From: a virus
Reading direction: 5' to 3' (one strand)
Length of the DNA stretch: 50,026 nucleotides
Virus record (IMG/VR): IMGVR_UViG_3300046616_000032
Location: 1-50,026 of that record
The notes beneath the pieces are model-generated. The model searched no databases, was not told the DNA's origin, and saw nothing but the letters and a program-made list of their open reading frames with translations. Shown piece by piece: positions 22,749 to 50,026 of the stretch (the first letter of the stretch is position 1; each line of letters starts with the position of its first letter). The translations under genes and the position numbers were made by a program.

Positions 22749-23093
22749 TCACGGCTTAGGCCGGTCGTCATTGCCTTGCTTTCGGAGTTCATAGGCAAGT
22801 AGAAAGAGAATGTCACATGCATCATGGGCGAGGTGGTGGATTTTGCTATCTTCTGCCACCGTCGCACCTTTCTGCCACCAATCGACTTTATGGCGGAGAC
22901 TAGCGTCGAAAAGTCGTCCGTAGTCCATTCCTTTTTCCCAGTTACGGTCAGCATACTTTTCTGCTCCAAACATCAAAACCTTAACGACTTCCTCGACTGC
23001 ATCCCAAGGCAGCAACGACCAGCGAAGCTTGCCTGCGTCCTTCTTGACACCGCCCTTGGAAATGTCGTCGCCTTCTCTGAGTTGTTCAACCAT
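22749..23093 (-). CDS. dATP/dGTP diphosphohydrolase-like (MazG/MazZ-type N-terminal domain, DUF5664-like) protein
   Basis: KLRWSLLPWDAVEEVVKVLMFGAEKYADRNWEKG...LRH...DSKIHHLAHDACDILFLL matches the conserved pattern of this family. The start is placed at the ATG (MVEQL) overlapping the upstream stop; the track ORF extends to 23159. Confidence 0.65.
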   Translation of the reverse strand: MVEQLREGDDISKGGVKKDAGKLRWSLLPWDAVEEVVKVLMFGAEKYADRNWEKGMDYGRLFDASLRHKVDWWQKGATVAEDSKIHHLAHDACDILFLLAYELRKQGNDDRPKP

Positions 23094-23451
23094 AGATGAT
23101 TTTATACTCCGGGTAACGTGCTTGGATTGCAACAGCGGCTGCATGCTCGGCTCGGGCACCAGAGGACTTCTCCCAGCCCGGGAGCAGATAGATGCCGTCG
23201 GAGTTAACGACTTTGTCGAGGTCCCACGTAAACGCTTCCTTGAAGTCCCAGCCTGACTTCATCAGGGCTTGGTCATCGCCTTTCTCCCAGCCAGCACCAC
23301 CGACGACACCAGCTTCCTCGTCCTTGTTAGCGGGGTTCCAAACCTTCCAGCCTTGCTTCTCAAGAGTGTACTGCGCCGTAAAGAAAGCCGGGAAGTTGAA
23401 CTCCGGGTAACCGGTCATAGGGCCTGCGATGTAAATACTTTTACCGAGCAT
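23086..23451 (-). CDS. DUF4406-type nucleoside 2-deoxyribosyltransferase-like protein
   Basis: 121 aa. N-terminal SIYIAGPMTGYPEFNFPAFF...GWKVWNPA is the hallmark of the DUF4406/NDT-like fold. Confidence 0.65.
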   Translation of the reverse strand: MLGKSIYIAGPMTGYPEFNFPAFFTAQYTLEKQGWKVWNPANKDEEAGVVGGAGWEKGDDQALMKSGWDFKEAFTWDLDKVVNSDGIYLLPGWEKSSGARAEHAAAVAIQARYPEYKIIYG

Positions 23452-23911
23452 ATGCTTTCAATCCTTCTACTAGGGCTTCTTCCGAATGAAATACGTCAGT
23501 AGCGAAGTTGTGCATAACGTCATACCGCTCAGGAACAGCGTCAAATAGGATAAATCCCGGCTTACCTGTTCCAACGAAGTAACCCAATTCGAGATGGCCA
23601 GACTTACCAGCAGGCATGACCAAGACAGCAAGGTCACACCGGTCAAGATGGTGTTTGTCAAAAGCAAAGACATGCCGAGCCGCGAAGCCGTAAAGGGCGG
23701 ACTTGTGGTCCCGCCCCCTGAGGTTTTCGTAGTCTCGCCACTTGTCGTCTGCTTCATGACCGGCTCCGTACCAATCGTCAAAGGCATCAAATCCTTCGGC
23801 CCGTAGGGTGTTTCCGATGTCTGGGATACGATCATTTCTGAGGCTTCCGATCAGGTAGACTGAGGTCACTTCATTACTTTCTTCTGTAGGATGGTTACCT
23901 TGCGGATACAC
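23441..23911 (-). CDS. nucleoside 2-deoxyribosyltransferase-like protein
   Basis: VYLIGSLRN...DLAVLVMPAGKSGHLELGYFVGTGKPGFILFD shows a Rossmann-like start and a Glu-containing C-terminal motif, as in the NDT/Rcl family. An alternative GTG start at 23869 would form GTGA with the upstream stop. Confidence 0.6.
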   Translation of the reverse strand: MYPQGNHPTEESNEVTSVYLIGSLRNDRIPDIGNTLRAEGFDAFDDWYGAGHEADDKWRDYENLRGRDHKSALYGFAARHVFAFDKHHLDRCDLAVLVMPAGKSGHLELGYFVGTGKPGFILFDAVPERYDVMHNFATDVFHSEEALVEGLKAYAR

Positions 23912-32800: not shown

Positions 32801-32829
32801 ATTATACACCCCCTGCTCCACGTTGTCAA
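32801..32829 (-). promoter_or_regulatory. consensus sigma70 promoter (minus strand) upstream of the replication module
   Basis: On the minus strand this reads TTGACA-acgtggagcagggggtg-TATAAT: perfect -35 and -10 hexamers with a 17-nt spacer, in a 157-bp non-coding gap. Confidence 0.8.
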
Positions 32830-32836
32830 GAACTAT

Positions 32837-32953
32837 TTACGGATCAATCCAATTCCATAGTTTGATGCCACAAGCAATGCCCCCGAGAAGCAACGGAGGC
32901 AAGCCAAACACTAGGGCGGCAGTAGCGAGAAGGGCTACTGGAAGTTCACTCAT
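32837..32953 (-). CDS. small membrane protein (38 aa)
   Basis: Hand-translated: MSELPVALLATAALVFGLPPLLLGGIACGIKLWNWIDP. Its ATG overlaps the upstream TAA (TAATG). Confidence 0.45.
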   Translation of the reverse strand: MSELPVALLATAALVFGLPPLLLGGIACGIKLWNWIDP

Positions 32954-33297
32954 TACTTGATCCTCACGCTGAAGCCACCGTAGTAGCCATTGTGTTCGTT
33001 GTGGGTCGTCAAAGTGACGAGACCCTTGGAGGACTGCACCTCCACAAACATCGTATCGTGGCACATGTCGTGGTAGTCTGCTTCGGGCTCACCGCCTTCT
33101 TTCTCCTCGATGCTGAGGAGTTCCCCACCGACCAGCGCCTCAGGGTCGTCGTCGCAGGTGATGTACCTGTGTTCGCAGCAATGCTGAGCGTCGTCATAGA
33201 CTGTTGCAGAAGTCCCATCCGAGAACATCAGATACAGACCCCCATCATGGACCTTAGCGCCGGTAATGACCTTACCGTAGAAGTCTTCCTTAGCCAA
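32953..33297 (-). CDS. hypothetical protein (114 aa)
   Basis: Abuts the ATP-grasp gene. Contains HCCEH and HNEHNGYYGG motifs. Function unknown. Confidence 0.6.
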   Translation of the reverse strand: MAKEDFYGKVITGAKVHDGGLYLMFSDGTSATVYDDAQHCCEHRYITCDDDPEALVGGELLSIEEKEGGEPEADYHDMCHDTMFVEVQSSKGLVTLTTHNEHNGYYGGFSVRIK

Positions 33298-34086
33298 TCA
33301 TGCCTCCCGATGCAGGCGTTGGAGATAATCCCGATAGACGGCAATGGTGTTGCCTTCCAGACCGGGTGCTGTGTTACCTTCGAGGACGTGTCCACGCTTC
33401 GACGGTTGATGCCAGATCACGTCCAAGGCTGCGAAGTGCAACCCCGGGAAGTGCTCAGTCATGAACCTCCGGGACAGATCGATTACCTCTGCCGGTGGTG
33501 GTACGTTCTGAACAAATACGAAACCGTTGTCATGATTTCGTACTTCCCATGACTTTGGTACGTCCCCCTCAGCCTTCTTTTGAAAGACCTTTGCCTGAGT
33601 GAGGATAGGGTTAAAATCAACACCCCTAAGGCTACGGGCCATGTGAATGCGGAATTCATGGGTCTTCTTCTGGTACCTCGTGTAAAGTGGAGCCCGAGGG
33701 ATGGGTCGGTTCTGGTCCGGCTCCCAGACCTCAATTCCAGCCCCGCCAGAGGCTTCTAGGCGATGACGGCACATGACCTTAGCTTGCCAACCCATCGCCT
33801 CCTCGCCGTTCGTAGACCATTCTGGGACCATATCAGTATGGCCTACGGCATTGAAGAAACGAAGCTTGTTGGTCAGGTACGGCAGGTCCTGCGGGTTGTT
33901 GACGATCCGTCGAAGCCCTCCTGTCATGAATTCCGGGGTGGAGTTACCCCAGAAGACGACGAGAGGTGTGTTGAAGTTAGGTCGGCGGTCAGTCAGGATG
34001 GTCTTGATACCAGCCTCCACCAAGGCCCCTTTCAGAGCCTTGGCACCACGCGAACCACGGTTGTAGCTATTGATGAAGATTGTCAA
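33298..34086 (-). CDS. ATP-grasp family ligase
   Basis: 262 aa. NKLRFF, VMCRHRLEASGGAGIEV, HEFRIHM and AALDVIWH...VLEGNTAPGL follow ATP-grasp core motifs (Gly-rich loop, E-x-R, E-x-N). Confidence 0.6.
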   Translation of the reverse strand: MTIFINSYNRGSRGAKALKGALVEAGIKTILTDRRPNFNTPLVVFWGNSTPEFMTGGLRRIVNNPQDLPYLTNKLRFFNAVGHTDMVPEWSTNGEEAMGWQAKVMCRHRLEASGGAGIEVWEPDQNRPIPRAPLYTRYQKKTHEFRIHMARSLRGVDFNPILTQAKVFQKKAEGDVPKSWEVRNHDNGFVFVQNVPPPAEVIDLSRRFMTEHFPGLHFAALDVIWHQPSKRGHVLEGNTAPGLEGNTIAVYRDYLQRLHREA

Positions 34087-35297
34087 AATTCATTCTCCAC
34101 ATCATTGATCCAACGGTCTGCCCAGGCTATCGGCGGTTCGGGTTGGGGGGCGGGGGGAACCGGCCGTCGTCGTCCTCCAAGGCCAACCCTACGTGGCCGG
34201 GGCGGAACTGCGCCATTAGCTCCCTGAGCCGCTGCCGCTGCTCCTCCCTGTGCCTGTCTCTCGCGACGTCGGGCAAAGCCCAACCCGGGGCGAAAGTTCA
34301 CGGCGGGTTGAGCCGCCACCTCCGCAGCCGGAATGTTCAAGCCGAAGTTTGCTCCACCTACGCCAGCACCACCGGCACCCCCTGCGCCTCCAGCCGCCAC
34401 GACATTCATGAAGAATGCATCATCTGCGGCCGGTTTGCCTTGCTTCTCTCGTGTCTTCGGCTTCTCTTTGACATGACGTTGGATCACACGGGCCATCTCG
34501 AATGCCGTACGGGCACCGAAATCAACGAGCTGCCCTGCGACCTCACGGTCGAACTCACACTCACCGAAGACCTTCGAGAGGAATTCCTTCGGCTCTGCTT
34601 CAGCCCGACGAACGCACGTCAGAAAGCTCGGGTCTTCCTCGGCAGCAACGACATCACGGATATTCCTCAGCCATGTACACCACTGGGAAATCGTCTTGCC
34701 ATCAAGGCTGGTCGGGAAGATGCGGTACTCAAGAGTACCTAGAGCGTTGCCTTCGCCCGGACCCAACCGGGTAAGGTTCAGTGACGAGTACTTCCCACGG
34801 GGATTAAATCCGTTGTAGAAGTTCCGACCGACGTCTGTGCAGAAGCGATCAACAAAGCTCGACAACTCCCCGGTGTCATAGCTCGGCACGCAGAACAAAC
34901 TCCCGTCTCTTCCCGGAGGTAGTAAACGGAAAGCGACAGGTTCAACAAGCGACCACACGACGAGCGTGCCAAGCACGTCTTTAAAGGTACGGTCGGCGTA
35001 GTTGACATGGATATGGGTTGAACTCCGATAACTCGGATTGACACGGGCGCCTTTCTTATCCAGCGCCCAGCGGAGGTTCTCGACGGCGAGATGGACTTCT
35101 TTACCAGCCAGCGGGTTGGAAACGTACTCCATACCATTGCGGAGGCTGCCATCTGCCTTGCCGACGAACTCAGCGGTGATCTTGCCTTCCGGCAGACCAG
35201 CACCTTCCGTCTCGATCTCGATGCCGAAGTCACCCTTCGGAACCCGTGTGTTGAACTTCTCAAAAACCTTTGTATTCATAAACTCAGCGTAGACCAT
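34083..35297 (-). CDS. putative amidoligase (Amidoligase_2 / glutamine-synthetase-like COOH-NH2 ligase) with low-complexity C-terminal tail
   Basis: 404 aa. FGIEIETEG, KADGSLRNGMEYVSNPL and SSTHIHVN match the Amidoligase_2 pattern. The last ~120 aa are Gly/Ala/Arg/Pro-rich. Confidence 0.7.
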   Translation of the reverse strand: MVYAEFMNTKVFEKFNTRVPKGDFGIEIETEGAGLPEGKITAEFVGKADGSLRNGMEYVSNPLAGKEVHLAVENLRWALDKKGARVNPSYRSSTHIHVNYADRTFKDVLGTLVVWSLVEPVAFRLLPPGRDGSLFCVPSYDTGELSSFVDRFCTDVGRNFYNGFNPRGKYSSLNLTRLGPGEGNALGTLEYRIFPTSLDGKTISQWCTWLRNIRDVVAAEEDPSFLTCVRRAEAEPKEFLSKVFGECEFDREVAGQLVDFGARTAFEMARVIQRHVKEKPKTREKQGKPAADDAFFMNVVAAGGAGGAGGAGVGGANFGLNIPAAEVAAQPAVNFRPGLGFARRRERQAQGGAAAAAQGANGAVPPRPRRVGLGGRRRPVPPAPQPEPPIAWADRWINDVENEF

Positions 35298-35305
35298 TTC
35301 ACCCT

Positions 35306-36289
35306 CTAGGCAGTGAGTAGGAGATCGACCTTAGCGAGGTCTTTGTGCATCCAAGACGGGATCAAATCCGTCTCGTCGAGAACCTTACAGCGGTCGCCGA
35401 TAACCAAACCCAGAGGGCGACCACAGTACTCAACTCCAATCGGGGCACCTTTCTTCCCCGACTGGTAGATAGCGACACGGCTGGACAACCGAAGACTATT
35501 ATTCGCTCCGCTGAGAAGCAGATCAGTCAGGTTCGGAGCGTACTTGATGTCCTTGGCTTGAGCCAAAGCCTTCAGGAGATCGTTCGTCCGGCACATACCC
35601 GGATGGTTGCGCTCACCTGCGGGCTTGAACTGCATATTCCGCTGGCTCATGCCCTGCGAGTTCTGACGTTCAGGGACACGATAAATCCACCATGCCGAGC
35701 CACGATGGTTGTAGTACGACGGAGCGATACCACGACAATCAACGACGTCGTCATAGTGGACGATGGTGTTGTTCTCGCCATCCGGGTCAGACACGAGCAA
35801 CGCGAACTTGCCACGTTCGTATTCGCACGTCTGATGGACGTAGAACGGGTTGTTCTTAATCAGGATGACCGTCTGATTAAGCTTCTGATTGATCTGTTCG
35901 TGACTGTCGTACTCCACCTTAAACGGCGGCAATGCGATGTCCCGTTCGATCACGGGGCCGTCCTTGAGTTTCCCCAAGTCCAGCTTCTTGTACATCTTCA
36001 TAATCTTTTCGTTGGCGGCCATACCTTCTTCGCGCCTCCTCGGCGCAGCAACCCGGTTAATCATCGCGAACGGATCGATGATGTCTTGATAGTCACGCAG
36101 GTCATCGATGACGTCTATGGCATTCCGAAAATTGTCGATCTGCCACGCTGGCGTCCACGCCCAATCCGGTTCACCCCGACCAACGGCATTGCCTTCGCGG
36201 TCAGCGGGATGAAAGTTGAACTGACGGATTTTCCAGTCGCGGTTGGCATCAACTTCGGCTTGGGTCTCAGGATTACGAAACGGCCGCAT
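35306..36289 (-). CDS. hypothetical protein (327 aa) inside the amidoligase cluster
   Basis: Start placed at MRPFRNPE (ATG 36289), overlapping the upstream stop by 17 nt. The track ORF extends to 36430 across the neighbouring gene. No motif recognised. Confidence 0.6.
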   Translation of the reverse strand: MRPFRNPETQAEVDANRDWKIRQFNFHPADREGNAVGRGEPDWAWTPAWQIDNFRNAIDVIDDLRDYQDIIDPFAMINRVAAPRRREEGMAANEKIMKMYKKLDLGKLKDGPVIERDIALPPFKVEYDSHEQINQKLNQTVILIKNNPFYVHQTCEYERGKFALLVSDPDGENNTIVHYDDVVDCRGIAPSYYNHRGSAWWIYRVPERQNSQGMSQRNMQFKPAGERNHPGMCRTNDLLKALAQAKDIKYAPNLTDLLLSGANNSLRLSSRVAIYQSGKKGAPIGVEYCGRPLGLVIGDRCKVLDETDLIPSWMHKDLAKVDLLLTA

Positions 36290-37076
36290 ACCCAATTTCC
36301 TTCGCCACTTCGGGATTAAGCTCGTCCCAATCCGTGATGTTCTTATTAATCGCGTATTGAGCAAAGCCCTGATAGGTCTTATCGAGATCGCCATCAGCAT
36401 TCGCGAACTCGCAAGCAGCAATCGTAGCATCGTAGACCTCGCCCATCAGCTTTTCGGAGGAGGCCCAGACAGACGAAGGAACACGATACTCCATCCCATA
36501 GGGCTTGGGCCGGAACGCACCAGCCTTACCGTAAAGCTCACGACGCTGGTTGTCTCGGTCGAACTTGAGCGTTCGGAGACCAACGAAATAATCCATCTGC
36601 CGAGCGAGAACGCAGCAGTTCGTGAAGTGTTCGAAGTCATCGTGTTCCTTGCCTTCGGTCCAACCGATGTGGATGTGACCAGCACCGGTACGGAAGTTCA
36701 CCTCCGCATTCGGGGCATCGTTCGGGGCAAACGTATACGCATTGTAGTCCGGGTTGCAGCCCAGAGCACGAACCTCGGGAGGCAGAGCTTGGATGTACTT
36801 GCTCTTGAAGGTCACAGTGGGCTGAGCCACGATCTTGCAGCCCTTGCCAGCGACGATCTCATTGAGATCACCGATGACGCCAAGGATGTTCGAAATGAAC
36901 TCCTCCTTGGACTTGGCCGGAATGATGTTGGCTTCAAGGGCAACGCCATCGACTTGGACAGCGCCATGCTTCGTCTTCATTGGTTCGGCCTTCGTGCCGC
37001 ATTCGAACGTGTGTCCAGAGATGAACACATTGCCACGACGCACGAAGAATTCCGGATCAGCACCAATAAGAAACAT
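36273..37076 (-). CDS. phiEco32-type COOH-NH2 ligase (type 2) candidate
   Basis: 267 aa. The N-terminal MFLIGADPEFFV is the hallmark opening of this phage ligase family. Confidence 0.55.
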   Translation of the reverse strand: MFLIGADPEFFVRRGNVFISGHTFECGTKAEPMKTKHGAVQVDGVALEANIIPAKSKEEFISNILGVIGDLNEIVAGKGCKIVAQPTVTFKSKYIQALPPEVRALGCNPDYNAYTFAPNDAPNAEVNFRTGAGHIHIGWTEGKEHDDFEHFTNCCVLARQMDYFVGLRTLKFDRDNQRRELYGKAGAFRPKPYGMEYRVPSSVWASSEKLMGEVYDATIAACEFANADGDLDKTYQGFAQYAINKNITDWDELNPEVAKEIGYAAVS

Positions 37077-37085
37077 TCTACTTCC

Positions 37086-38615
37086 TCAGTTCGTAACTAC
37101 GGCCGTACGAATTTGGCCGAGATAGGGTTTGACTTGCTCGTTGTTACCGCAGTCGTAGCAGACAAAGTCCTTACTTCCCACGTCGGACGATGTAGGAAAT
37201 ACGTTATCACCGGCGACAGCAACACTGCCACACCAAGCGCAGCCACGATCCACACATCGGATGAGGTCACGGCCGATACGCTGATCGATGGGGGTTTCTT
37301 CCCGGTTACGGGTGTAGTTAGCGGGAAGGCCCACGTCTGAGATGTCGTCGTTGAGTGGGTCCGGGCTTTCAATATCGACCGAAACGTCAAACTCCTTCGG
37401 GGGGTTAATAACCCTGCCAACTCTTTGAGCAACCTGAAACCTTTGGAGGCGCTTCTTGGCGTCTCTCTCCTCTTGTGCGAGTTGTTTCGCCAGACGCTTC
37501 TGCTGCTGCTTCGATAGCGGCTTGTCAGCAACCGTCGCAGTGTTCGCCTCGACGGGCTTCTCGGGTTCCTCGGGAGGAGCCTTCTCCGCGAGGGCTTTCA
37601 GCCTGTCTTCGACGTTCTGGGGCGACGGCAGCCGAAGGACGTTATCGCCTTCGACCCAACGACCGTTGACGAAGACCTTGCCATCCGACGAACGAATAGG
37701 CCGGGTCTCGCTGCGGACATCAGAGAGACGCTCCCACGGGAGATCGTCCGCCTCCGGCCACTGCTCGTTCCAGAGTTCACGGCGCTGCGTGACGCCCTGA
37801 GCGTGACCTTGGGAGCGATGGTGGTTGCCGTTATGCCCACCCGTCCCACGACCACGCCAATGACCCCCCACCCAGTTAGAGACCTTCGGCTCCTCGGGCT
37901 TGACGTCAGTCACGGATAGCGGCCGGATGACATGCTTGACATCCAGCGGATACTTGAAGTGCTTGTGGATCGGGAGATACGTGCTCCACGTGTTGTTGCC
38001 TTTGTAGCTCCGCTTGAAAGCGAAGTCCAACATCTCCTGTTCCGACGACCAGAACAGCGTACTGATGTTGTCATTCCAGCCGACGTTCTTGAAGAACAAT
38101 GTCCGCTCGGCATTGCGCAGGAAATTGATCGATTGATCCTGCTCGTCGATCCACACTAGGGCGTATGCCCCACGGGTATCCTTCATGGTCTCTTCGACAC
38201 CGATCTTCGAGAAGCTCTCGAACAGCATCGCACTGTCGGAAGTACCAGCCGGGACGTCCTGTCCCGCAACCTTGTACAGTGTACCGTTGTGGACGCCAAT
38301 GATGTGACCAAAGCGATGCGGATGCACAGCCTTGATGTCCACACCACCCTTCGTGGGCCAGCGAGCATGCCCGATGATGGCATTGCAACGCGGCTTCAGA
38401 AGCTCGGAGAGTTCGTCCGAGTAGGCCAGAACGCCTGCGATCTTTGTCGTACGCAGGCTACGGATCGTGGGGGTCTTCTTGGTCGAGATCGTCTGGGAGA
38501 CGATGACCCCTGAGCCATCCATACCACGGAGGCTTGAGATGTTTAGCAAGTCACGGAAGAGGTTTTCCTCTCCGAAGGCCAAGCTGGAACTCATAACACC
38601 TGATAGTCCGCACAT
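37086..38615 (-). CDS. class II (Ntn) glutamine amidotransferase domain protein with long C-terminal extension and Zn ribbon
   Basis: 509 aa. Starts MCGLSG (Cys2 nucleophile). IIGHARWPTKG...VHPH...GVHNGTLYKV. No fused synthetase domain. The C terminus carries CVDRGCAWCGS...CYDCG. Confidence 0.75.
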   Translation of the reverse strand: MCGLSGVMSSSLAFGEENLFRDLLNISSLRGMDGSGVIVSQTISTKKTPTIRSLRTTKIAGVLAYSDELSELLKPRCNAIIGHARWPTKGGVDIKAVHPHRFGHIIGVHNGTLYKVAGQDVPAGTSDSAMLFESFSKIGVEETMKDTRGAYALVWIDEQDQSINFLRNAERTLFFKNVGWNDNISTLFWSSEQEMLDFAFKRSYKGNNTWSTYLPIHKHFKYPLDVKHVIRPLSVTDVKPEEPKVSNWVGGHWRGRGTGGHNGNHHRSQGHAQGVTQRRELWNEQWPEADDLPWERLSDVRSETRPIRSSDGKVFVNGRWVEGDNVLRLPSPQNVEDRLKALAEKAPPEEPEKPVEANTATVADKPLSKQQQKRLAKQLAQEERDAKKRLQRFQVAQRVGRVINPPKEFDVSVDIESPDPLNDDISDVGLPANYTRNREETPIDQRIGRDLIRCVDRGCAWCGSVAVAGDNVFPTSSDVGSKDFVCYDCGNNEQVKPYLGQIRTAVVTN

Positions 38616-38624
38616 ATGATTTCC

Positions 38625-39305
38625 TTATGCTGCGAGAGCGCGTTCGACGCACTTGAAGAAGAGTTCTCTACAGCTTTCGCTTGAGTACTCCGGATGGGGT
38701 TGAAAGCACAGGCTGCGGGTGTTCTTGTAGTACACGACCTCGGCATCACCGGGGTTCTTACCGCTGCCCGGATCATACTTGAACGTCAGCCAGTTGCCGT
38801 CCTTGTCCTTGATGCCACACGCCTTGGTCGAGGCGAGATTGGCCCAAGCCCAAACAGCAGCCCCGCCTTCACGAATAGCCGGGATCATCATCTGATGATG
38901 CGTACTCGTGACGTTGTAGGCACGCTTCAGACCAGCGGCATTGACGTATGTGACTTCGTGCGTTCCACGAATTGCGTGGTTGTCCACGTCCTGCCACATC
39001 TTGCCCTTGTTCATGATATTCAGGAACTGCCCGCCACGACAGATACCGACACGGAACTTGCCTTCGGACTTGGCGTAGCACGCCTGCTCATAAGCATCAC
39101 GCTGTTCGTTGACGAAGGTCCGAGGATGCTTCAACTCCCCGTAGAGCTTGGGGCTGACGTCCGCACCGCCGGTCCATACGGCGATGTTACACTCCGCGAG
39201 GTTCATCGCGACGGCAGCACCGGCTTCGAGGAACATCCGTTCGATGTTGTAATCCCCACCGATGATGTACACACGATGGGACTTGTTCAGTGGTTTCTCA
39301 GACAA
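38625..39305 (-). CDS. class I glutamine amidotransferase / gamma-glutamyl hydrolase (peptidase C26-like)
   Basis: 226 aa. GICRGGQFLN (nucleophile Cys), VTSTHHQ and FQPHPE together give the Cys-His-Glu triad pattern. Confidence 0.75.
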   Translation of the reverse strand: MSEKPLNKSHRVYIIGGDYNIERMFLEAGAAVAMNLAECNIAVWTGGADVSPKLYGELKHPRTFVNEQRDAYEQACYAKSEGKFRVGICRGGQFLNIMNKGKMWQDVDNHAIRGTHEVTYVNAAGLKRAYNVTSTHHQMMIPAIREGGAAVWAWANLASTKACGIKDKDGNWLTFKYDPGSGKNPGDAEVVYYKNTRSLCFQPHPEYSSESCRELFFKCVERALAA

Positions 39306-40128
39306 TACGTTCTCCTGTCATCAAAGCTTGGACGAATTGCTCCAAGGGCTTACGGATCGGTTGCTGCCAATCAATCTTCCAGATCGGTTGGTCGTACATG
39401 GCGAAGCACGATGCAGAACCACTGGGACCGTGGGCGTCCCGCTTGATTAACTTCCCATTGAGAAAGCCATAAGCTTTCTGCCACGGGGATAGACTGCCCA
39501 ACGGGGCACAATGCCCTTGGACTGCACTAGTCCAAAGACCATCGGGATTGTTCTTGTTCATCGGCTGTAGAACGTACGTAGCCAGCAGAACCAGATTGGG
39601 GTTCGTCGGGTACTTCGACCGCAGATACTGGAAAGTCTTCATCCGAGAGGGATGCTCGAACATAAACCTCGTGGCTTGGGCGAACGTCCACAACAGCCCG
39701 GCATTGAGTTTCTTGTCCGAGAGATTGTGGCAAACGATGACCTTGTCGGCCATGATGTCATCGACATCCGTCTTCCAGATGTACGGGAATACATCCTTGA
39801 ACGGGCTGTCTTTGTGCATCAAATGCGAGAGATAGTCCTTAGCCTCAGGGCCAAGGTATTCCGTGCAGGACATATTGCCGGTATCATCGCCACTGCCACC
39901 ACCACGGTACATGAACCCGATGATGTCCGAGGACTTGTGTGAGTTGAACTCACTAGCCGTCGGGGCATAGCAGACGTCAGCCCGAGCTGTGACTTTGCCA
40001 CCCGGAGCGACCATGACAACCGGGGAGCACTGGCTTGTTTTGTGGGCGGCACAGAACTTCTGCGCAGCAGTGACGATTTCCTCGCCGAGGCTAGGAGTGA
40101 ACTTCAATGGGATCATAATGCAATCCAT
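39298..40128 (-). CDS. hypothetical protein (276 aa) inside the amidoligase cluster
   Basis: 8-nt overlap with the downstream GATase gene. Alternative ATG at 40116. No motif recognised. Confidence 0.6.
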   Translation of the reverse strand: MDCIMIPLKFTPSLGEEIVTAAQKFCAAHKTSQCSPVVMVAPGGKVTARADVCYAPTASEFNSHKSSDIIGFMYRGGGSGDDTGNMSCTEYLGPEAKDYLSHLMHKDSPFKDVFPYIWKTDVDDIMADKVIVCHNLSDKKLNAGLLWTFAQATRFMFEHPSRMKTFQYLRSKYPTNPNLVLLATYVLQPMNKNNPDGLWTSAVQGHCAPLGSLSPWQKAYGFLNGKLIKRDAHGPSGSASCFAMYDQPIWKIDWQQPIRKPLEQFVQALMTGERIV

Positions 40129-40258
40129 TCAGATATGCGAGGGCTTCATAGTCTTCGTCATTGTCTGGCATGTCCCGGAAGGGATCGCGTGGGCAATCCC
40201 CTTTAGAGATGTCGTCGAGGTCGCAGGTACACGTCCTGCCGTCAGAGAAGCATTTCAT
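40091..40258 (-). CDS. small acidic Cys-containing protein (55 aa)
   Basis: Hand-translated: MKCFSDGRTCTCDLDDISKGDCPRDPFRDMPDNDEDYEALAYLNGLHYDPIEVHS. Its ATG overlaps the GGCT stop (ATGA). Fills the only sizeable gap in the cluster. Confidence 0.5.
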   Translation of the reverse strand: MKCFSDGRTCTCDLDDISKGDCPRDPFRDMPDNDEDYEALAYLNGLHYDPIEVHS

Positions 40259-40686
40259 GCCGCCCTCACATATGAAACGAGTTCATGGGCGTCATCGACC
40301 TTGATGTTTTTGCCGAGGAACGCTTGGTTGTCGTACCGATGGAAGACCTTGGCATCGCCGACGTACACCGAGACGATCTCGTCATCGAGGGTGTATTCTT
40401 CCATGCGATGGTACATATAGCCTTCGCTTTCCAACCGGTCGAGACGAGCCAGAATGATCTCGCCTTCGCGGGTCAGCTTGCCGTCTACGTTCGGAAGCTC
40501 GTATACTTCCCCCGTAGGAAAGTAACCCGGCTTGTTCTGCGTGGCCTGAAGGATAACCGGGAAGCCACCGGTATCGAACATCCGGTAAGCCTTCTTGAGG
40601 GCGGTGTCCTTAAGGAAAGCCGCGCCTTCCAGACAACGATGGTTGTGAAAGCCTTTCTTGAGCGTACCATAGACGAATACCTTCAT
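40255..40686 (-). CDS. gamma-glutamylcyclotransferase (AIG2/GGACT-like)
   Basis: 143 aa. N-terminal VFVYGTLKKGFHNH and TGEVYEL (catalytic Glu context). Confidence 0.8.
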   Translation of the reverse strand: MKVFVYGTLKKGFHNHRCLEGAAFLKDTALKKAYRMFDTGGFPVILQATQNKPGYFPTGEVYELPNVDGKLTREGEIILARLDRLESEGYMYHRMEEYTLDDEIVSVYVGDAKVFHRYDNQAFLGKNIKVDDAHELVSYVRAA

Positions 40687-41818: not shown

Positions 41819-42616
41819 TTACGCTGTTTTCTTCGCCGTGTCAACCTCAAACACCGGCTTATGCCGTACCAAGGCTTTGTTGTCCACCATCCAGACAAAC
41901 AATGTAACCTTGTTGCCTGAATTGTCGTTGGTCAAAGGACCGTGGACAGCGACGTCACCGAGCTTGTGTTCCTCGATGTACTTGACGATACGGTCGCCTT
42001 GCTTGTGCGTCCCAGTAGGCGTGGCCTCAGTAAACAGATAGTACGGGCGATGCCTGCCGTATCGCTTCTGTTGTTCCTTGGCCCAGATGATGTAATCAGT
42101 AGGGGACACCGAGACGACTTTCCGCTCGGCGACCCAGTCGGGGTCTTTGGGATCGGTTCTCGTCAGAACGATCTGGTTCTGAATGCCGTGATGCTCCTTG
42201 ACACCGCAGCAATGCATGTCCTTCGACAGCCAGTTTGGGATATGGACGTTCCACCCATCCTTCGCCGGGAACTTGTCTTCGTAGATGCCGTTATGCTTAG
42301 CCACGACTGGCTCCTTCACTGGCACGAACCGATTGAGCTGGTCCTCCATCCACTGATTGAACCTCGACGTACCCCGGCCTGTCGCCGTGTACCATACTTC
42401 GGCTGTCCGCAGTGTCTCCAGAGCTCTGAATTCGCTTGAGCTCAGCGCGGAAGGCTCGGCGGGCCTCACGGGCGGCATTGCGACGGGCTCCGCGATAGGT
42501 GCTGGCGTCCCGAGGAATACCTGCCTTTGGGCGGCGAGGGCTTCCTGCCGTTGTTGCGCCCGCTCCTGATGGGTCTTGAAGCCCTGCTTCCGCAGGTTGT
42601 AGACTGACGATTTCAT
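41819..42616 (-). CDS. hypothetical protein (265 aa)
   Basis: Long ORF with a basic N terminus and a Pro/Ala linker. No motif recognised. Confidence 0.65.
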   Translation of the reverse strand: MKSSVYNLRKQGFKTHQERAQQRQEALAAQRQVFLGTPAPIAEPVAMPPVRPAEPSALSSSEFRALETLRTAEVWYTATGRGTSRFNQWMEDQLNRFVPVKEPVVAKHNGIYEDKFPAKDGWNVHIPNWLSKDMHCCGVKEHHGIQNQIVLTRTDPKDPDWVAERKVVSVSPTDYIIWAKEQQKRYGRHRPYYLFTEATPTGTHKQGDRIVKYIEEHKLGDVAVHGPLTNDNSGNKVTLFVWMVDNKALVRHKPVFEVDTAKKTA

Positions 42617-42913: not shown

Positions 42914-42943
42914 CAAAAAATCCCCCATGTTTTCACATGGGGG
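42914..42943 (-). terminator. rho-independent terminator (minus strand)
   Basis: The minus strand reads CCCCCATG-tgaaaa-CATGGGGG-A-TTTTTT. Confidence 0.75.
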
Positions 42944-43793: not shown

Positions 43794-44723
43794 TTAAACG
43801 GCCTTTGCTGCCGCAGGCTCATTGGAAGCCGCTCCGCCATCGCTCGGAAACGCCTTCTGATTGCGCTTGCGGGTTGCTTTTGCCTGCTCTTTGCGAACGT
43901 TCGCAGAAGCCTGCAATTCCTTCGCACGGTCGGTAGCGGCCTGTGCCACGGCCATCAAATCATCGACGGATGACAGGAAACCAATGGAGCGGAGAACGAA
44001 CGCGAGGTGATCCACGTTCGATTGCCCGACCTTGTCCGCGATCTTGATTGCCTTGGCTTTCGCGTTGCCGGGCACAGCGTTGAAGATATCCGAACCCTTG
44101 TCCGCGACCATCGCCGCCGCGATACGAGACGGTTTGTCCGTGCTCGCCTTGACGTTGTTCGATGCCTTGGTTTCACCCTGCGGCTTGGCGGGAGGCTTGG
44201 GAGCCAACTGCTTTTCGAGCGCCGCGAAAGCGTTTGCGCCCTTCGTCTTTTTCATGATGAAATCAAAGACGATATCGCACGCCTTGTCCGCCGTCTTGGC
44301 ACGCAGGATCATGCTCAGCGGCGATCCATCCTGAACGCCCTTCTTATCGTAGTCTTTGACCAGCGACCGAGCCATGTTCGTGGCGACCGAAAGGAACCGG
44401 TAAACCCACGCCTTGCCGAACTCTTTGCCGCGCTTGGCTTCCCCGTATTCCTTGAAGGCGGTAACGATTTCCGCCTTGGTATCATCGTAGCTCGCCCGGT
44501 CAGCCTCAATCGGCGAGTACGTCCGGACAACGAGATGCACAACCATCGAAGCAGTCATTCGCAGGGTGGCATCTGCGGCGTTGCCGATATTGGCAACCAC
44601 AACCTTGAGGCTGTCCGCGGCCTTGATGTACACGACCTTGTCAATGGTCTTTTCCGAACCGGTATCGGTAGCGGCAGCCATGACAGGAACCAGCGAGGTA
44701 GAAGCGAAAAGGATTGAACGCAT
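43794..44723 (-). CDS. first leftward (early) gene: 309-aa Ala/Lys-rich protein with signal-peptide-like N terminus
   Basis: MRSILFASTSLVPVMAAATD... is followed by a helical domain and a Lys/Pro/Ala-rich linker. Flanked by the regulatory region on one side and a terminator on the other. Confidence 0.65.
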   Translation of the reverse strand: MRSILFASTSLVPVMAAATDTGSEKTIDKVVYIKAADSLKVVVANIGNAADATLRMTASMVVHLVVRTYSPIEADRASYDDTKAEIVTAFKEYGEAKRGKEFGKAWVYRFLSVATNMARSLVKDYDKKGVQDGSPLSMILRAKTADKACDIVFDFIMKKTKGANAFAALEKQLAPKPPAKPQGETKASNNVKASTDKPSRIAAAMVADKGSDIFNAVPGNAKAKAIKIADKVGQSNVDHLAFVLRSIGFLSSVDDLMAVAQAATDRAKELQASANVRKEQAKATRKRNQKAFPSDGGAASNEPAAAKAV

Positions 44724-45218: not shown

Positions 45219-45229
45219 TGCAGATTAAC

Positions 45230-45257
45230 TTGACGGTAACGACCAAGCCTCTATAAT
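45230..45257 (+). promoter_or_regulatory. sigma70-type promoter (plus strand) for two small ORFs
   Basis: TTGACG-16 nt-TATAAT. Confidence 0.65.
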
Positions 45258-45293
45258 CGCGTGTATGGGCAATCCCGCCCTAGGGGAATGACA

Positions 45294-45500
45294 ATGACAG
45301 ACAGACAGAAGGCAATTGCGAAAGCTCGCGAGGCTTATCGCTTCTGGAACACAACCGGCATTAAGCCCGTGGGTTTCACTGTGACCGATGACGAGCAACA
45401 CCCATTCCGCTTTGTTGCGCACGGTTGGGTTATCCGCTTGCGCGACCAAGGCAAAGTCTCTTTCTGCTACCGTGCAACCGAGCCTGAGGATTTCCAATGA
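45294..45500 (+). CDS. hypothetical protein (68 aa)
   Basis: ATG at 45294 (or 45288) is preceded by AGGGGA. The track start at 45261 (GTG) would lie at or upstream of the predicted transcription start. Confidence 0.5.
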   Translation: MTDRQKAIAKAREAYRFWNTTGIKPVGFTVTDDEQHPFRFVAHGWVIRLRDQGKVSFCYRATEPEDFQ

Positions 45501-45593
45501 CCAACGATGAAAAGTGGTTTGCTTGCTGCCTGCCTTTCGTGCCCGTTTGGGTTTGTTGGGCGTTGTGGTATTCATTCGGATAAGGGAGAAGCC

Positions 45594-45767
45594 ATGTTGA
45601 CGATCAAAATTGAGACTGCCTCTAATCGTGTGATGGTCTTTGAATACCAGATGCCAATGAAACACACTCTCGATTGGCTCATTCAAACGACCAAAGAGAA
45701 TGTCCCCGATTGGACCAAGATCACGATTGAGTTGACGCCTACCACCATCGAACACGCAGCTAGATAG
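45594..45767 (+). CDS. hypothetical protein (57 aa)
   Basis: ATG at 45594 is preceded by AAGGGAGAAG. The upstream part of track ORF 45507.. is Cys/Gly-rich and implausible. A terminator follows. Confidence 0.5.
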   Translation: MLTIKIETASNRVMVFEYQMPMKHTLDWLIQTTKENVPDWTKITIELTPTTIEHAAR

Positions 45768-46152: not shown

Positions 46153-46181
46153 TTGACAACCCTCGCGGAATATGGTATAAT
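46153..46181 (+). promoter_or_regulatory. consensus sigma70 promoter (plus strand)
   Basis: TTGACA-accctcgcggaatatgg-TATAAT: perfect hexamers with a 17-nt spacer. Confidence 0.8.
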
Positions 46182-46399: not shown

Positions 46400-46444
46400 G
46401 TGTCGTCCTTTTCAGTGACGAAGTCACGCCATTGCGGAGCAATT

Positions 46445-47113
46445 ATGGAACCTGCCTCTATTCGCTATAAGAACCCCGGGGCTATGTGGGGCAATGCCCT
46501 AGCCCGTAAGTGGGGAGCAGCCCCTAAGGCTGTGACCCTGAATGACGGCAAAGGCCAAGGCAATAACATCGCTGTCTTCCCGACCTATGTCCAAGGCATT
46601 TGCGCCCAGCTCGATCTGTGGCGGTCGTCCAAGAACTACAAGAACAAGAAATTCGCTGATGCGATATCCGTCTGGTCGGGCCACAACGAGGTCCCCAGCT
46701 ACATCTCCTTCGTCAAGAAGCGTGTCCCCGGCCTCACAGAGGCTACGGTCATGGATGACGCCTTCTGGAAGTCCGATAAGGGAGTAGCCTTCCTCAAGGC
46801 TCAGGCTTGGCACGAAGCAGGCAAGGAATACCCCGCTCCTTCTCAGGACTGGTTGAACGCCCAAGGCATCGTCCTTGGCCAGAAGCCTCTAGAAGCCCCT
46901 AAGAAGGCCACACAGGCGATTGTAGTCTCCGGGGCTAGTCAGGTAGCCGCCCACACCGCAGGCTTCTCCACGGCCTCCGCTGTCCTTCTGGGAGCCATTG
47001 TAGTCGTCGCCGTTGGTCTGTTCCTCTGGTGGAAGCACAAATCAGACAATCAGAAGTACATTAATACCGAACTTGCAAAGGTCACCCTTCAGGATGTCAA
47101 AGTTCAAGAATGA
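46445..47113 (+). CDS. putative cell-wall-active protein with C-terminal membrane anchor (lysis candidate)
   Basis: ATG at 46445 with GGAG 5 nt upstream. N-terminal IRYKNPGAMWGN motif of the kind seen in some phage lytic or virion enzymes. C-terminal TM helix AVLLGAIVVVAVGLFLWW. Confidence 0.35.
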   Translation: MEPASIRYKNPGAMWGNALARKWGAAPKAVTLNDGKGQGNNIAVFPTYVQGICAQLDLWRSSKNYKNKKFADAISVWSGHNEVPSYISFVKKRVPGLTEATVMDDAFWKSDKGVAFLKAQAWHEAGKEYPAPSQDWLNAQGIVLGQKPLEAPKKATQAIVVSGASQVAAHTAGFSTASAVLLGAIVVVAVGLFLWWKHKSDNQKYINTELAKVTLQDVKVQE

Positions 47114-47591: not shown

Positions 47592-49903
47592 TGGCAAAAT
47601 ACAATTCCGACGGGACAATCGCTACTACTACTGTATCCGGTTCGTCTCGAACGGGGTTGTTTGCTGCCGACGGCTCCCTGAACATCGTCCTCGATGACGC
47701 TGTCTACAAAGGTCTCTACCATCCTTGTGGAGCCCTTCGGGTCAATTCCGACACTACTACCCAGCGCACCTATGATCCCTCAGGAGCCTACTACCTCGGC
47801 ACTCTTCTTGGAAGAGGAGGGGTGGCGCCCTACGCTCCCGTTGACCCAACTATCATACAGAACTTCTTCGCCAGCGATGGCTCGCAGAACGCGGTGACGG
47901 CCGTCATCAACGGCTGGAGTGGGCAATATTACAACGGCCGAACCTATGTTGCCTATCAGGGCGCGCAGTTCGATCTCTACCTGACGGCCTACAACCATTC
48001 CACGTCGAACTTTGAGGGGCCTTACTTCGTTTCCAAGGGCAACCTTGTCGGTGACGCCCACGGCTATCCCGGTGTCCTTATCAAGAAATACGGAACGGGG
48101 ATCGGCACTATTCACTACATGGGTGGATCGCACGTCAACCCGCTGGTCTATGCCAAGTCGAGCGTAGCTCAGGACGTATCGACAATGGTTGTGCAAACCT
48201 CGCCGGTCGCCTCGTGCTCATATCCTACCTTGCGAGAAACCACTGACGGCAAGCTCTGGCTGTTCTACCGCGCCGGAGGCCATCTTAGCCCGTGGTCCTA
48301 CATCACCTCGACGGACAACGGGGCAACGTGGTCAGCGGCTACCATCTTCCTGAACTACGGACTTGGCACAAGCGACTCGGCCTATGCGTGGGTCACCAAT
48401 GACAGCGCGGACAACTTCCATATTTCTTGGCTGTGGCAGGACGAAGACAATTCACTCGGCAACCCGAACGCCCCTGCAATCGGCAACCGCTATAACGTCT
48501 ATTATATGAAACTTTCGAGCGGCGCGACGGTCAAGACAAACCTCGCCGGTACGACGCTCGCAACCTTCCCGCCGACGCTCACCAGCTCGAATGCTGAGTG
48601 TATTCTCGTCAGCACGACGCCGACATGGCTTCTGGTTCAGGTCGCCCAAGTCGCGGTCGATAGTTCGAACAATCCCTATATCTCGTGGAACCAACTGACG
48701 AACACTAACACCGGGCTTCCGCATACCTACAAGGTAGGCTGGTGGAATGGCTCGTCGTTCAGCACGAGCGACATCACGACCACGGACCACATCTTCGACG
48801 AATATGATGTGGAGTGCGTATCTGGCAGCAGTGCGGCAAACGTTGTCCTTCGTGCCGTTGTAACCAAGGGTGGCTCCACGGGCACCAACGGCGACTACGA
48901 CGCCACCCAGACGGATCGCGGCGGCAGTCTTGAGGAGTGGACCTCGACGGCAGGCATTGGAAGCTGGAGCAAGACGGCAACCATCATCACTGCTCCGAAC
49001 ACAGGCGATCTCTACAACTCGCCGAATTTCGTCAAGGACTACCAAGCGTCCGCTAAGGTCCTCTATAACGAATGGGTCAATAACCTCTCGACTTACACGG
49101 CCAAGGTCGGGCTGTGGGGCTCTGGCGGTGCCGTTAGGGTGCCGTTCGAGGCGGAGACTACTGCCTTCCTCAACCGCTTTTCCGTTACCCCAAGCGCCGC
49201 CGTCCAGTGCGACATCAATGCAATGTGGCGCATCCTGAAAGCGTCCGGCCTCACCGCATCCCTTGATGCCTTTTACCTGCTCGGCCTGATGGATGCCCAG
49301 TCCGCGCGCTTGAACTGGATCAATACGAACTTCACATTGACGCCGCAGGGCAACACCGGAAATGGGCCGACGCATACATCAGGCGCGGGCTTCACCGGGA
49401 ACGGAACGGATAGCTACCACGACACCGGCATTCTAGCTGGCGGTCTGACTAATTTTACCCAGAACAGTGCAGCGGCTGGTATCTGGTGCGATGTCAATGC
49501 TCAAGGCGCCGCCGCTGATTTCGGTCAGGCATACGGCACGTCAGATGTCTATATCCGTCTTCGTGACGCCAGCAACCTTACCTTTGGGCGCATCAATCAG
49601 AACACGACGCTCAATGTGGCTAATACCGACAACACGTATCTGACGTCAGTAGTCCGCACGGGTGCGACCGCAATGGCACTGCGTAAGAACCTCTCGCAAA
49701 TTGCCTCTGGCGCTGGCGCATCTTCGGCTCGCGATAATACGGCCGGCCATACGTTTTGGATTGGCGGTGTCAATCTCGGCACGCCTCAGTTTTCCAGCCG
49801 GCGACTTGGCGCGTGCTACATCGGCGCGGCGATCAGCGCGGCGCAGGAAAAGGCACTCTATAACATGCTTTATAGCTGGTTCCGCAAGCGTGGAACGATT
49901 TAA
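47591..49903 (+). CDS. BNR/Asp-box beta-propeller protein with C-terminal lectin-like domain (tail spike / depolymerase candidate)
   Basis: 770 aa. Asp-box STDNGATW, DAHGYPGVLIK...IHYMGGSHVNPLVY. The C-terminal ~250 aa are jelly-roll-like, ending AAQEKALYNMLYSWF. The stop lies inside the terminal repeat. Confidence 0.5.
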   Translation: MAKYNSDGTIATTTVSGSSRTGLFAADGSLNIVLDDAVYKGLYHPCGALRVNSDTTTQRTYDPSGAYYLGTLLGRGGVAPYAPVDPTIIQNFFASDGSQNAVTAVINGWSGQYYNGRTYVAYQGAQFDLYLTAYNHSTSNFEGPYFVSKGNLVGDAHGYPGVLIKKYGTGIGTIHYMGGSHVNPLVYAKSSVAQDVSTMVVQTSPVASCSYPTLRETTDGKLWLFYRAGGHLSPWSYITSTDNGATWSAATIFLNYGLGTSDSAYAWVTNDSADNFHISWLWQDEDNSLGNPNAPAIGNRYNVYYMKLSSGATVKTNLAGTTLATFPPTLTSSNAECILVSTTPTWLLVQVAQVAVDSSNNPYISWNQLTNTNTGLPHTYKVGWWNGSSFSTSDITTTDHIFDEYDVECVSGSSAANVVLRAVVTKGGSTGTNGDYDATQTDRGGSLEEWTSTAGIGSWSKTATIITAPNTGDLYNSPNFVKDYQASAKVLYNEWVNNLSTYTAKVGLWGSGGAVRVPFEAETTAFLNRFSVTPSAAVQCDINAMWRILKASGLTASLDAFYLLGLMDAQSARLNWINTNFTLTPQGNTGNGPTHTSGAGFTGNGTDSYHDTGILAGGLTNFTQNSAAAGIWCDVNAQGAAADFGQAYGTSDVYIRLRDASNLTFGRINQNTTLNVANTDNTYLTSVVRTGATAMALRKNLSQIASGAGASSARDNTAGHTFWIGGVNLGTPQFSSRRLGACYIGAAISAAQEKALYNMLYSWFRKRGTI

Positions 49904-50026
49904 AGGGCTTAAGATGTAATGTCAGACCTGCCTCCGAACGACCAGAAAGAACTTTTCAAACAAGCAATCAAAGAATGGATGGATGAACGTTACGCCGACC
50001 TAGGACGCTGGGCAGTCAAAGTCATT
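49900..50026. repeat. 127-bp exact terminal repeat, copy 2 (identical to 1..127)
   Basis: Verbatim duplicate of bases 1-127. It contains the stop of the BNR gene and the first 107 nt of the 57-codon membrane ORF. Confidence 0.95.

Follow-up and report, generated by a model that had tools for sequence, protein, structure and literature searches.

A module of carboxylate-amine ligases and glutamine amidotransferases carried by phages has been a known unknown since 2009, when it was first described in phage phiEco32 by Iyer, Abhiman, Burroughs and Aravind. In papers citing that work, it is invoked for cell-wall modification or superinfection exclusion (PMC10580990, PMC11706807), or for a secondary metabolite. 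The searchable full-text literature contains annotation-level mentions of the module and speculation about it, and no biochemical function. Here we describe a cluster of nine tightly packed open reading frames (ORFs) at positions 33298-40686, minus strand, of the viral genome record IMGVR_UViG_3300046616_000032 from IMG/VR, analyzed over its whole length of 50,026 nucleotides (the window). A first-pass annotation of this DNA, made without database searches, had described the cluster as lacking a resolved product and had credited the prediction of such systems to the 2009 study; both statements agree with the literature. By sequence similarity, the cluster can be assigned as a copy of the phiEco32-type phage amidoligase module in a Zobellviridae-type seven-gene arrangement, and we are highly confident both of this membership and of the general amide-bond chemistry. 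The window is thus one more copy in a class of several hundred phages.

The phiEco32 cluster (gp77-gp88) and the related LUZ24/UFV-P2 cluster encode a COOH-NH2 ligase, a protein similar to an orphan family termed here orphA, an Amidoligase_2 protein, an Ntn-type glutamine amidotransferase (GATase) with a zinc ribbon, a RimK-like ATP-grasp ligase, and a gamma-glutamylcyclotransferase (GGCT; phiEco32 gp77 and UFV-P2 gp29). Like the cluster in the window, to which their identity is ~32-37%, they adjoin the primase-helicase gene. The remote orphA homologues, phiEco32 gp85 (hhalign probability 78%, E 1.9e-5) and UFV-P2 gp22 (55%), occupy the same position and have ~190-205 aa; UFV-P2 gp25 ends in the same zinc ribbon as the Ntn enzyme of the window, and phiEco32 gp83 in a CxxC...Cx4C version of it. 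The gene order differs, in that the Ntn GATase follows the amidoligase. Further, in these clusters a class I GATase is undetectable, a second orphan family, termed orphB, gives only a weak signal in phiEco32 gp87 (43% probability), and the GGCT gene is constant, whereas it is accessory in the lineage of the window.

The closest cultured relatives are the PA11/TC6-type phages (Zobellviridae, Paundecimvirus), together with Klebsiella phage Klyazma and Citrobacter phage CVT22 (Citrovirus). They have the same seven genes in the same order upstream of the primase-helicase gene, and their COOH-NH2 ligases are 43-48% identical to that of the window, the best matches (45-48%) being those of the Zobellviridae phages Ty, IME180, PSA11, and TC6. 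In the TC6 and Klyazma regions no gamma-glutamylamine cyclotransferase (GGACT) is annotated, and HNH and small ORFs are inserted; the window, in turn, differs from both by a 120-aa N-terminal extension of orphA and a highly divergent orphB.

The RimK system (S6 poly-glutamylation) and the LysX/LysW system share with the window the ATP-grasp ligase, which is closest to RimK, and an acidic tail on a flexible linker, found here on Amidoligase_2. However, no gene for an S6- or LysW-like carrier is present, the tail usually ends in Phe rather than Glu, and six further conserved proteins have no counterpart there. The GshA/GshB/GGCT and PuuA/PuuD pathways draw on the same superfamilies (GCS- and GS-like ligases, ATP-grasp, C26 gamma-glutamyl hydrolase, and GGCT-fold cyclotransferase), but the proteins of the window reach no NCBIfam model of those enzymes and belong to phage-restricted families. 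Finally, some of the metagenomic thymidine hypermodification clusters (Lee et al. 2018/2021) also contain amidoligase and amidotransferase domains, as passengers without explanation.

The features of the cluster are as follows.

33298..34086, minus strand: RimK-like ATP-grasp ligase, with a TTG start and a 4-nt overlap with the Amidoligase_2 gene
34083..35297, minus strand: Amidoligase_2, a glutamine-synthetase-like carboxylate-amine ligase, core at residues 1-~250
34086..34535, minus strand: Ala/Gly/Pro/Arg-rich disordered tail of Amidoligase_2, with the acidic tip ...INDVENEF
35306..36289, minus strand: orphA-family protein of 327 aa, a lineage-specific N-terminal extension (120 aa) followed by the conserved C-terminal ~200 aa
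36273..37076, minus strand: phiEco32-type COOH-NH2 ligase type 2 (GCS2-like carboxylate-amine ligase)
37086..38615, minus strand: Ntn (class II) glutamine amidotransferase of 509 aa, with linker and zinc ribbon
37131..37253, minus strand: four-Cys zinc ribbon of the Ntn enzyme, C459-x2-C462...C486-x2-C489, all four invariant in 37 homologues
38625..39305, minus strand: class I glutamine amidotransferase/peptidase C26 (gamma-glutamyl hydrolase type)
39298..40128 (start at 40128 or 40116), minus strand: orphB-family protein; family size ~270-330 aa
40091..40258, minus strand: 55-aa acidic ORF with four Cys, ending ...EVHS and preceded by a GAGG-type ribosome-binding site
40255..40686, minus strand: GGACT/AIG2-like gamma-glutamyl(amine) cyclotransferase, an accessory member

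All nine ORFs of the first-pass annotation were found at its coordinates, and they occupy 14.8% of the 49,899-bp genome, close to the 15% it had estimated. The successive gene junctions, from 40686 down to 33298, measure -1, -4, -26, -8, +9, +9, -17, +8, and -4 nt. The assignment to the phiEco32-type module follows from the gene content: a PF14395 ligase lies in a phage genome with terminase, portal, capsid, and tail genes, the Amidoligase_2, ATP-grasp, and class II amidotransferase genes lie within 5.3 kb on the same strand, and the optional AIG2/GGCT cyclotransferase is in the neighborhood.

The enzyme families proposed earlier were recovered by profile searches for the ligases, the amidotransferases, and the cyclotransferase alike, five of them by Pfam above the gathering score and the ATP-grasp ligase by PHROG 2599 and an orthologue profile. 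The sequence motifs quoted there were found, and across 17-66 orthologues each of the six enzymes keeps its catalytic-type residues at 94% conservation or more, which marks them as working enzymes under selection. The COOH-NH2 ligase matches PF14395 (7.7e-09, 35.6 bits, cutoff 25) and PHROG 3815 (2.7e-70) and has 24 invariant columns among 27 orthologues. Amidoligase_2 matches PF12224 (1.4e-10) and PHROG 7469 (3.8e-33), with E27, E29, E31, H95, H97, E190, and R192 invariant in 59 orthologues. For neither of these two ligases was a solved structural relative found by sequence.

The ATP-grasp ligase matches PHROG 2599 at 1.7e-41, whose label "S6 glutaminyl transferase" is an annotation transfer only; searched as a single sequence, it hits nothing in Pfam, NCBIfam, or PDB. 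When 29 orthologues were combined into a profile and compared with PDB, the best matches were the RimK/alpha-L-glutamate ligases 7qyr, 5zct, and 4iwx (6e-7 to 4e-6, over ~200 residues), followed by graspetide cyclases (1e-4 to 1e-2) and then by the D-Ala-D-Ala ligases (Ddl). The residues K74, R107, K141, E144, D222, E236, and N238 are conserved, as expected for nucleotide and Mg binding in the RimK family.

The Ntn enzyme matches PF13522 (GATase_6) at 9.9e-13 and the GlmS/PurF glutaminase domains at 6e-12. It begins with MCG, the catalytic Cys following the initiator Met, and R30, G31, H83, R85, T88, N110, G111, and D127 are invariant in 37 homologues, providing the glutamine-binding and oxyanion residues of a class II amidotransferase. 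R85, T88, N110, G111, and D127 correspond to R73, T76, N98, G99, and D123 of GlmS, which hold the free alpha-amino and alpha-carboxyl groups of glutamine. The JGI gene call, 478 aa starting at Met32, would delete the catalytic Cys2; thus the 509-aa ORF (MCGLSG) is correct, and it is also the gene call on an identical Logan contig. The enzyme had been described as stand-alone. It is indeed not fused to a synthetase, its C-terminal half having no synthase or acceptor domain of the GlmS, PurF, or AsnB kind, but it carries further parts: in 37 of 37 aligned homologues the glutaminase domain is followed by a non-alignable charged linker (~100-250 aa) and the C-terminal zinc ribbon. Beyond residue ~200 no Pfam, NCBIfam, or PDB match was found.

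The class I enzyme matches PF07722 (2.6e-12, 47.4 bits, cutoff 20.5), PHROG 7218 (1.2e-50), and PDB 3fij (6e-5). Its triad C89, H204, and E206, in the Cys-His-Glu arrangement with a G-x-C-x-G elbow and an H-x-E motif, and its H136-H137-Q138 motif are 98-100% conserved in 47 orthologues. The GGACT protein, with the motif VYGTLKKG, matches PF06094 (1.7e-14, 54.8 bits, cutoff 22.8) and the human GGACT structure 3jub (5e-3). Among 17 orthologues Y6, G7, E60, D83, E86, and R94 are conserved; E86, which lies in an LDRLE motif and is 94% conserved, is the putative catalytic Glu by analogy with human GGACT. The GGACT gene is constant in the phiEco32- and LUZ24-type clusters.

The module is widespread. 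At the protein level, COOH-NH2 ligase homologues occur in 318 of 50,697 deposited phage genomes, the records coming mostly from phages of Pseudomonas (121, PA11/TC6-like and LUZ24-like), Escherichia (94, phiEco32-like), and Vibrio (22), with further carriers among phages of Aeromonas, Proteus, Salmonella (phage 7-11), Cronobacter, Klebsiella, Rhizobium, and Pseudoalteromonas. At the nucleotide level, other phages match the ligase gene over 65-216 bp only. Annotations of these genes exist in phiEco32, UFV-P2, TC6, and Klyazma and in a Zobellviridae phage from an oyster metagenome. With the module annotated in hundreds of cultured phages, the cluster is neither rare nor peculiar to the genome described here. 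When 185,579 species of bacteria and archaea were scanned, one genome each, the yield was 18 loci, all on contigs of metagenome-assembled genomes (MAGs), mostly of 18-50 kb, and no isolate chromosome bearing the module. These contigs look like binned phage genomes, and the family is essentially phage-restricted; the species scan offered no cellular neighborhood from which a function could be borrowed.

Using the ligase as a probe, we fetched 45 viral-contig and 18 MAG loci and compared all of their ORFs, with counts taken over 67 sources. The COOH-NH2 ligase is present in 67 of 67 loci, the Ntn GATase in 62, Amidoligase_2 in 61, orphA, which lies between the COOH-NH2 ligase and Amidoligase_2, in 61, the ATP-grasp ligase in 57, the class I GATase in 50, and orphB in about 41 by BLAST (45-47 by jackhmmer); GGACT is found in 17. 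The order orphB, class I GATase, Ntn GATase, COOH-NH2 ligase, orphA, Amidoligase_2, ATP-grasp is near-invariant, and where the ATP-grasp gene seems to be missing, it is found just upstream of orphB instead. In all compared loci the module adjoins primase-helicase and DNA polymerase genes. The conserved module of this lineage therefore consists of seven co-oriented, translationally coupled genes, GGACT being accessory.

Hundreds of phages that infect Pseudomonas, E. coli, Klebsiella, Vibrio, and marine bacteria, therapy candidates among them, retain the module with its active sites intact. In a directed-evolution experiment with the P. aeruginosa phage FJK, two independent lines gained missense changes in the amidoligase and Ntn amidotransferase genes (PMC11450229), and such parallel changes indicate that the module affects infection fitness. 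Together with the large share of the genome and the wide conservation, they make it very likely that the module is important during infection. Solving it would mean new phage biochemistry, an amide-linked modification or a metabolite. What the window contributes is a refined parts list, namely seven genes, two of them without Pfam models, the Ntn zinc ribbon, and the acidic tip of Amidoligase_2; as an experimental handle it adds nothing to the cultured carriers.

The two proteins that had been called orphans are both conserved families in fixed positions, orphA in 61 of 67 loci and orphB with 45-47 orthologues, though both lack Pfam models. The orphA gene had been placed at 35306-36430. The gene is present, but its start is at 36289, which is identical to the database gene call and matches the closest orthologue. 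A search of 1.84 billion proteins yielded 518 cluster representatives of the family, whose conserved C-terminal part carries the motifs LGY.N, R.P.R..QG, and Y..VG. No Pfam model matches the 33 family members compared, and ten long orphA-family proteins from the search of 1.84 billion show no Pfam domain in their extensions. An AlphaFold model (pLDDT 88.9) consists of two small beta-barrels in tandem, with helices. It superposes on uncharacterised proteins of ~190 aa from Salinivibrio phage CW02 and several Vibrio phages (BFVD, TM 0.74-0.80), while PDB contains no fold match with E <1e-3 and no profile match. Likeness to eIF5A, EF-P, and HEX-1 was dismissed as evidence, as the TM scores are below 0.3. 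Only Arg, Pro, and Gly are conserved in the family, with neither a nucleophile nor an acidic residue among them. This agrees with a role in binding, and orphA is probably an adaptor or a substrate-binding subunit.

The orphB protein of the window is highly divergent (13-18% identity). Iterated jackhmmer runs started from TC6_056 and T5S1 ORF14 recover it at 2.5e-36 and 1.8e-15, respectively, along with 45-47 positional orthologues encoded just upstream of the class I GATase. In the family alignment a Cys and an Arg are invariant, and a Glu and a His near-invariant. There is no Pfam match for 41 members and no PDB profile match, and an AlphaFold model from three sequences was unusable (pLDDT 36). 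We suggest orphB as a candidate new enzyme, conserved and uncharacterised. One member (contig L052, 3481-4434) has a weak N-terminal Rho_N/HeH-type motif (E 0.0057, below the Pfam cutoff), and two others (L001, L058) have N-terminal extensions of ~170 aa. These could hint at binding of nucleic acid or another polyanion, or could be noise.

The 55-aa peptide listed in the first-pass annotation exists as an ORF, which overlaps its neighbors by 4 nt and 26-38 nt, but it does not belong to the conserved module. It has no tblastn match in 46 related loci and no family match, and we consider it a doubtful or lineage-specific gene. Since the ORF is not conserved, its interpretation as a Pup/LysW-like tag or as a precursor like those of ribosomally synthesised and post-translationally modified peptides was rejected. 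Further, the module is accompanied by no conserved family of small ORFs in the 67 loci.

The candidate for a carrier-like element is therefore the acidic tail of Amidoligase_2 alone. The long form of this protein carries a low-complexity linker at its end. An acidic tip, defined by at least three Asp/Glu and no Lys/Arg within the last eight residues, was seen in 21 of 32 such sequences, as compared with 47 of 1038 background ORFs, and a terminal Phe, Trp, or Tyr in 10 of 32, as compared with 13 of 1038. Within the module, this tip is confined to Amidoligase_2. Acidic tails serve as docking elements in SSB and in T7 gp2.5 and gp4, and are substrates of the RimK, LysX, and TTL-type ATP-grasp ligases. 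No earlier description of this tip, or of the Ntn zinc ribbon, was found in the searchable literature.

The first-pass annotation had viewed the cluster as one that makes, amidates, and trims gamma-glutamyl- or peptide-type amide bonds, and the enzyme families fit this view. Going further, we tentatively propose, with somewhat less than even confidence in the statement as a whole, that the enzymes are tethered to one another and together glutamylate and amidate an acceptor other than DNA, which would be a macromolecule or a precursor. With ATP and glutamine as inputs, the proteins of the module would assemble a short amide structure of the glutamyl type on the acceptor and amidate it. Amidoligase_2 and the COOH-NH2 ligase would form an acyl-phosphate from a carboxylate and couple it to an amine or to ammonia, the latter supplied by the Ntn amidotransferase and, in this lineage, by the class I amidotransferase. 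As the Ntn enzyme keeps the glutamine-holding residues of GlmS, its expected substrate is glutamine or a gamma-glutamyl compound whose amino-acid end is free; the enzyme may either feed ammonia to a ligase in trans or remove a gamma-glutamyl group. The RimK-like ligase could extend a glutamyl or C-terminal carboxylate by L-glutamate. The class I (C26) enzyme and GGACT might alternatively trim or recycle gamma-glutamyl groups by cleaving gamma-glutamyl amides. The linker-borne zinc ribbon, the acidic tip of Amidoligase_2, and the beta-barrel protein orphA would be docking or adaptor elements, and orphB a further enzyme. The acceptor, modified during the middle of infection, could be the tail or a side chain of a host or phage protein, or an envelope precursor.

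We prefer a protein or an envelope precursor over a free metabolite only modestly. Flexible tethers, together with two conserved proteins that are not ligases, point to an assembled complex whose acceptor is large or anchored; among solved structures, the ATP-grasp ligase is nearest to RimK enzymes, which act on a protein C-terminus, and then to peptide macrocyclases; and the same enzyme set is found in phiEco32, UFV-P2, TC6, and Klyazma. Several points weigh on the other side. Ligases of the GS and GCS kinds typically handle small molecules, as do amidotransferases that bind glutamine in its free form. The module has no conserved gene for a carrier or a precursor peptide in the 67 loci, and the short form of Amidoligase_2 has the acidic tail in only 2 of 27 sequences. 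By their sequences, the amidotransferases may equally feed ammonia to the ligases or hydrolyze gamma-glutamyl groups, and the complex is itself a proposal drawn from sequence features. Finally, the seven-gene version is lineage-specific, as neither a class I amidotransferase nor a clear orphB could be detected in clusters of the LUZ24 type.

A sharper form of this proposal, possible but doubtful, would make the cassette a self-contained macromolecule-modifying machine, with the zinc ribbon and the acidic tail keeping its parts together, that places an undescribed covalent mark of the glutamyl or glutaminyl type on a host or phage protein, possibly at the replisome or ribosome, or on an envelope precursor, with orphA as the adaptor and orphB as a new Cys/His-type enzyme. 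If true, it would represent a new class of phage host-takeover or anti-defence chemistry.

That the module instead encodes a free small-molecule pathway is plausible, though rather unlikely. The genes would then be auxiliary metabolic genes, for instance for nitrogen assimilation, and the soluble gamma-glutamyl compound that they produce or use up could be a gamma-glutamyl-polyamine, an amidated derivative of an amino acid, or a peptide resembling glutathione. The superfamilies do mirror GshA/GshB/GGCT and PuuA/PuuD chemistry, and the Ntn enzyme retains its free-glutamine-binding residues, but no protein reaches an NCBIfam equivalog for GshA/B, PuuA/D, or GS. GGCT enzymes of the BtrG type remove gamma-glutamyl protecting groups in natural-product pathways, which also favors a small molecule. 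On the other hand, the phage-restricted distribution (18 MAG loci and no isolate among the 185,579 species) indicates that this is not a host-derived auxiliary gene set, and soluble metabolic enzymes do not usually come with long linkers, a zinc ribbon, and two conserved proteins of non-catalytic appearance. A role in nitrogen metabolism was proposed in eLife in 2024 for the same gene set in "Phage-ZRK32" (PMC10945688), the evidence there being a growth effect only.

The ZRK32 record itself, OP650935.1 (Poriferisphaera phage ZRK32), published as a chronic phage of a deep-sea Planctomycete, has the same enzyme set, and its positions 10013-10113 are 82% identical at the nucleotide level, over 100 bp, to the GGCT region of Pseudomonas phage UFV-P2. 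The record looks like a fragment of a LUZ24-type Pseudomonas phage, which would bear on both the published host and the nitrogen-metabolism claim.

Modification of the cell envelope, in which carboxylates of peptidoglycan precursors or surface polysaccharides would be amidated or extended, for instance to block superinfection or to alter lysis, is plausible, though unlikely. The logic of an amidotransferase working with an ATP-dependent ligase parallels amidation by MurT/GatD and AsnB-type enzymes, D-Ala-D-Ala ligases form the third tier of solved relatives of the ATP-grasp ligase, and the named hosts of all cultured carriers are Gram-negative bacteria with meso-diaminopimelate-type walls. However, the proteins have no Mur-ligase, membrane, or secretion features and all look cytoplasmic, and the carriers are strictly lytic podophages with the module inside the minus-strand early and replication block, upstream of the primase-helicase gene. 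PMC10580990 and PMC11706807 cite the proposal from the 2009 study.

Hypermodification of DNA or nucleotides, the role listed first in the first-pass annotation, by which glutamyl or amide groups on phage bases or nucleotide precursors would evade restriction, is the least supported reading and very unlikely, because canonical bases have no carboxylate for the ligases to activate and no precursor-pathway genes were recognized. In PHROG and Pfam searches of the replication, early, and structural ORFs (few of them shorter than ~110 aa), we found no thymidylate-synthase-like dUMP hydroxymethylase, 5-hydroxymethyldeoxyuridine DNA kinase (5-HMUDK), aGPT-Pplase, or pyridoxal-phosphate or radical S-adenosylmethionine enzymes of the thymidine route, no DpdA/TGT with FolE, QueD, QueE, and QueC of the 7-deazaguanine route, and no TET/JBP or methyltransferase. 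In favor of this reading are the constant proximity of the primase-helicase and DNA polymerase genes, the zinc ribbon, which could bind nucleic acid, and the acidic Phe-terminal tail of Amidoligase_2, which resembles the SSB and T7 gp2.5/gp4 tails docking on replisome proteins. Amidoligase and amidotransferase Pfam hits also co-occur with thymidine-hypermodification genes in some metagenomic contigs (PMC8989533). Yet a LUZ24-type variant with COOH-NH2 ligase, amidoligase, and Ntn amidotransferase is present in phage Rembedalsseter, and in a nanopore comparison of native and whole-genome-amplified DNA only nicks were reported for this phage, the negative not being stated explicitly, whereas four other phages were modified (PMC11780129). 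Genomes of the LUZ24, tf, and phiEco32 types are routinely sequenced, and no modification was reported in the literature found.

The first 127 nt of the window (1-127) are identical to the last (49900-50026), either as an assembler overlap or as terminal redundancy. The window is thus a complete podophage genome with a true length of 49,899 bp. Structural genes (terminase, portal, capsid, tail, and internal virion protein) are on the plus strand, and early and replication genes form a long minus-strand block, in which the amidoligase module lies upstream of the primase-helicase gene. Candidate transcription signals around the module were taken from consensus scans only, and their overall counts do not exceed shuffled expectation.

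32878-32901, minus strand: terminator-like hairpin downstream of the cluster
42922-42943, minus strand: second terminator-like hairpin, upstream of the cluster
32801-32829, minus strand: sigma-70 promoter matching 12/12 consensus positions, just downstream of the first hairpin
46153-46181, plus strand: second sigma-70 promoter matching 12/12 consensus positions

The first hairpin is the likely end of the transcription unit of the cluster. The same apparent unit includes a DUF7448 protein gene (32953-33297, minus strand; PF24240, 1.4e-16), which follows the stop codon of the ATP-grasp gene with a 0-nt gap; it is not among the gene families common to at least four of the 67 loci. An ORF at 36446-36685 (minus strand; also in contigs L002, L009, and L023), which clusters across 15 loci, is not a real gene, its clustering being a by-product of the conserved overlapping COOH-NH2 ligase gene read in an alternative frame.

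PADLOC defence-system models gave no matches. Neither Pfam nor PHROG matches were obtained for four ORFs of 176-309 aa, namely those at 41819-42616, 43794-44723, and 45225-45755 (minus strand) and 46400-47113 (plus strand); the first two have homologues in the closest contig (L003) only. Finally, two nucleotide-pool genes, without obvious link to the cluster, are found on the minus strand at 22749-23159 and 23441-23911. One encodes a dATP/dGTP diphosphohydrolase N-terminal domain (PF18909, 4.5e-29), for which endolysin-labelled PHROG families are also listed; the other is at the far end of the replication block, and its product resembles a nucleoside 2-deoxyribosyltransferase (PHROG 12607, 1.3e-13).

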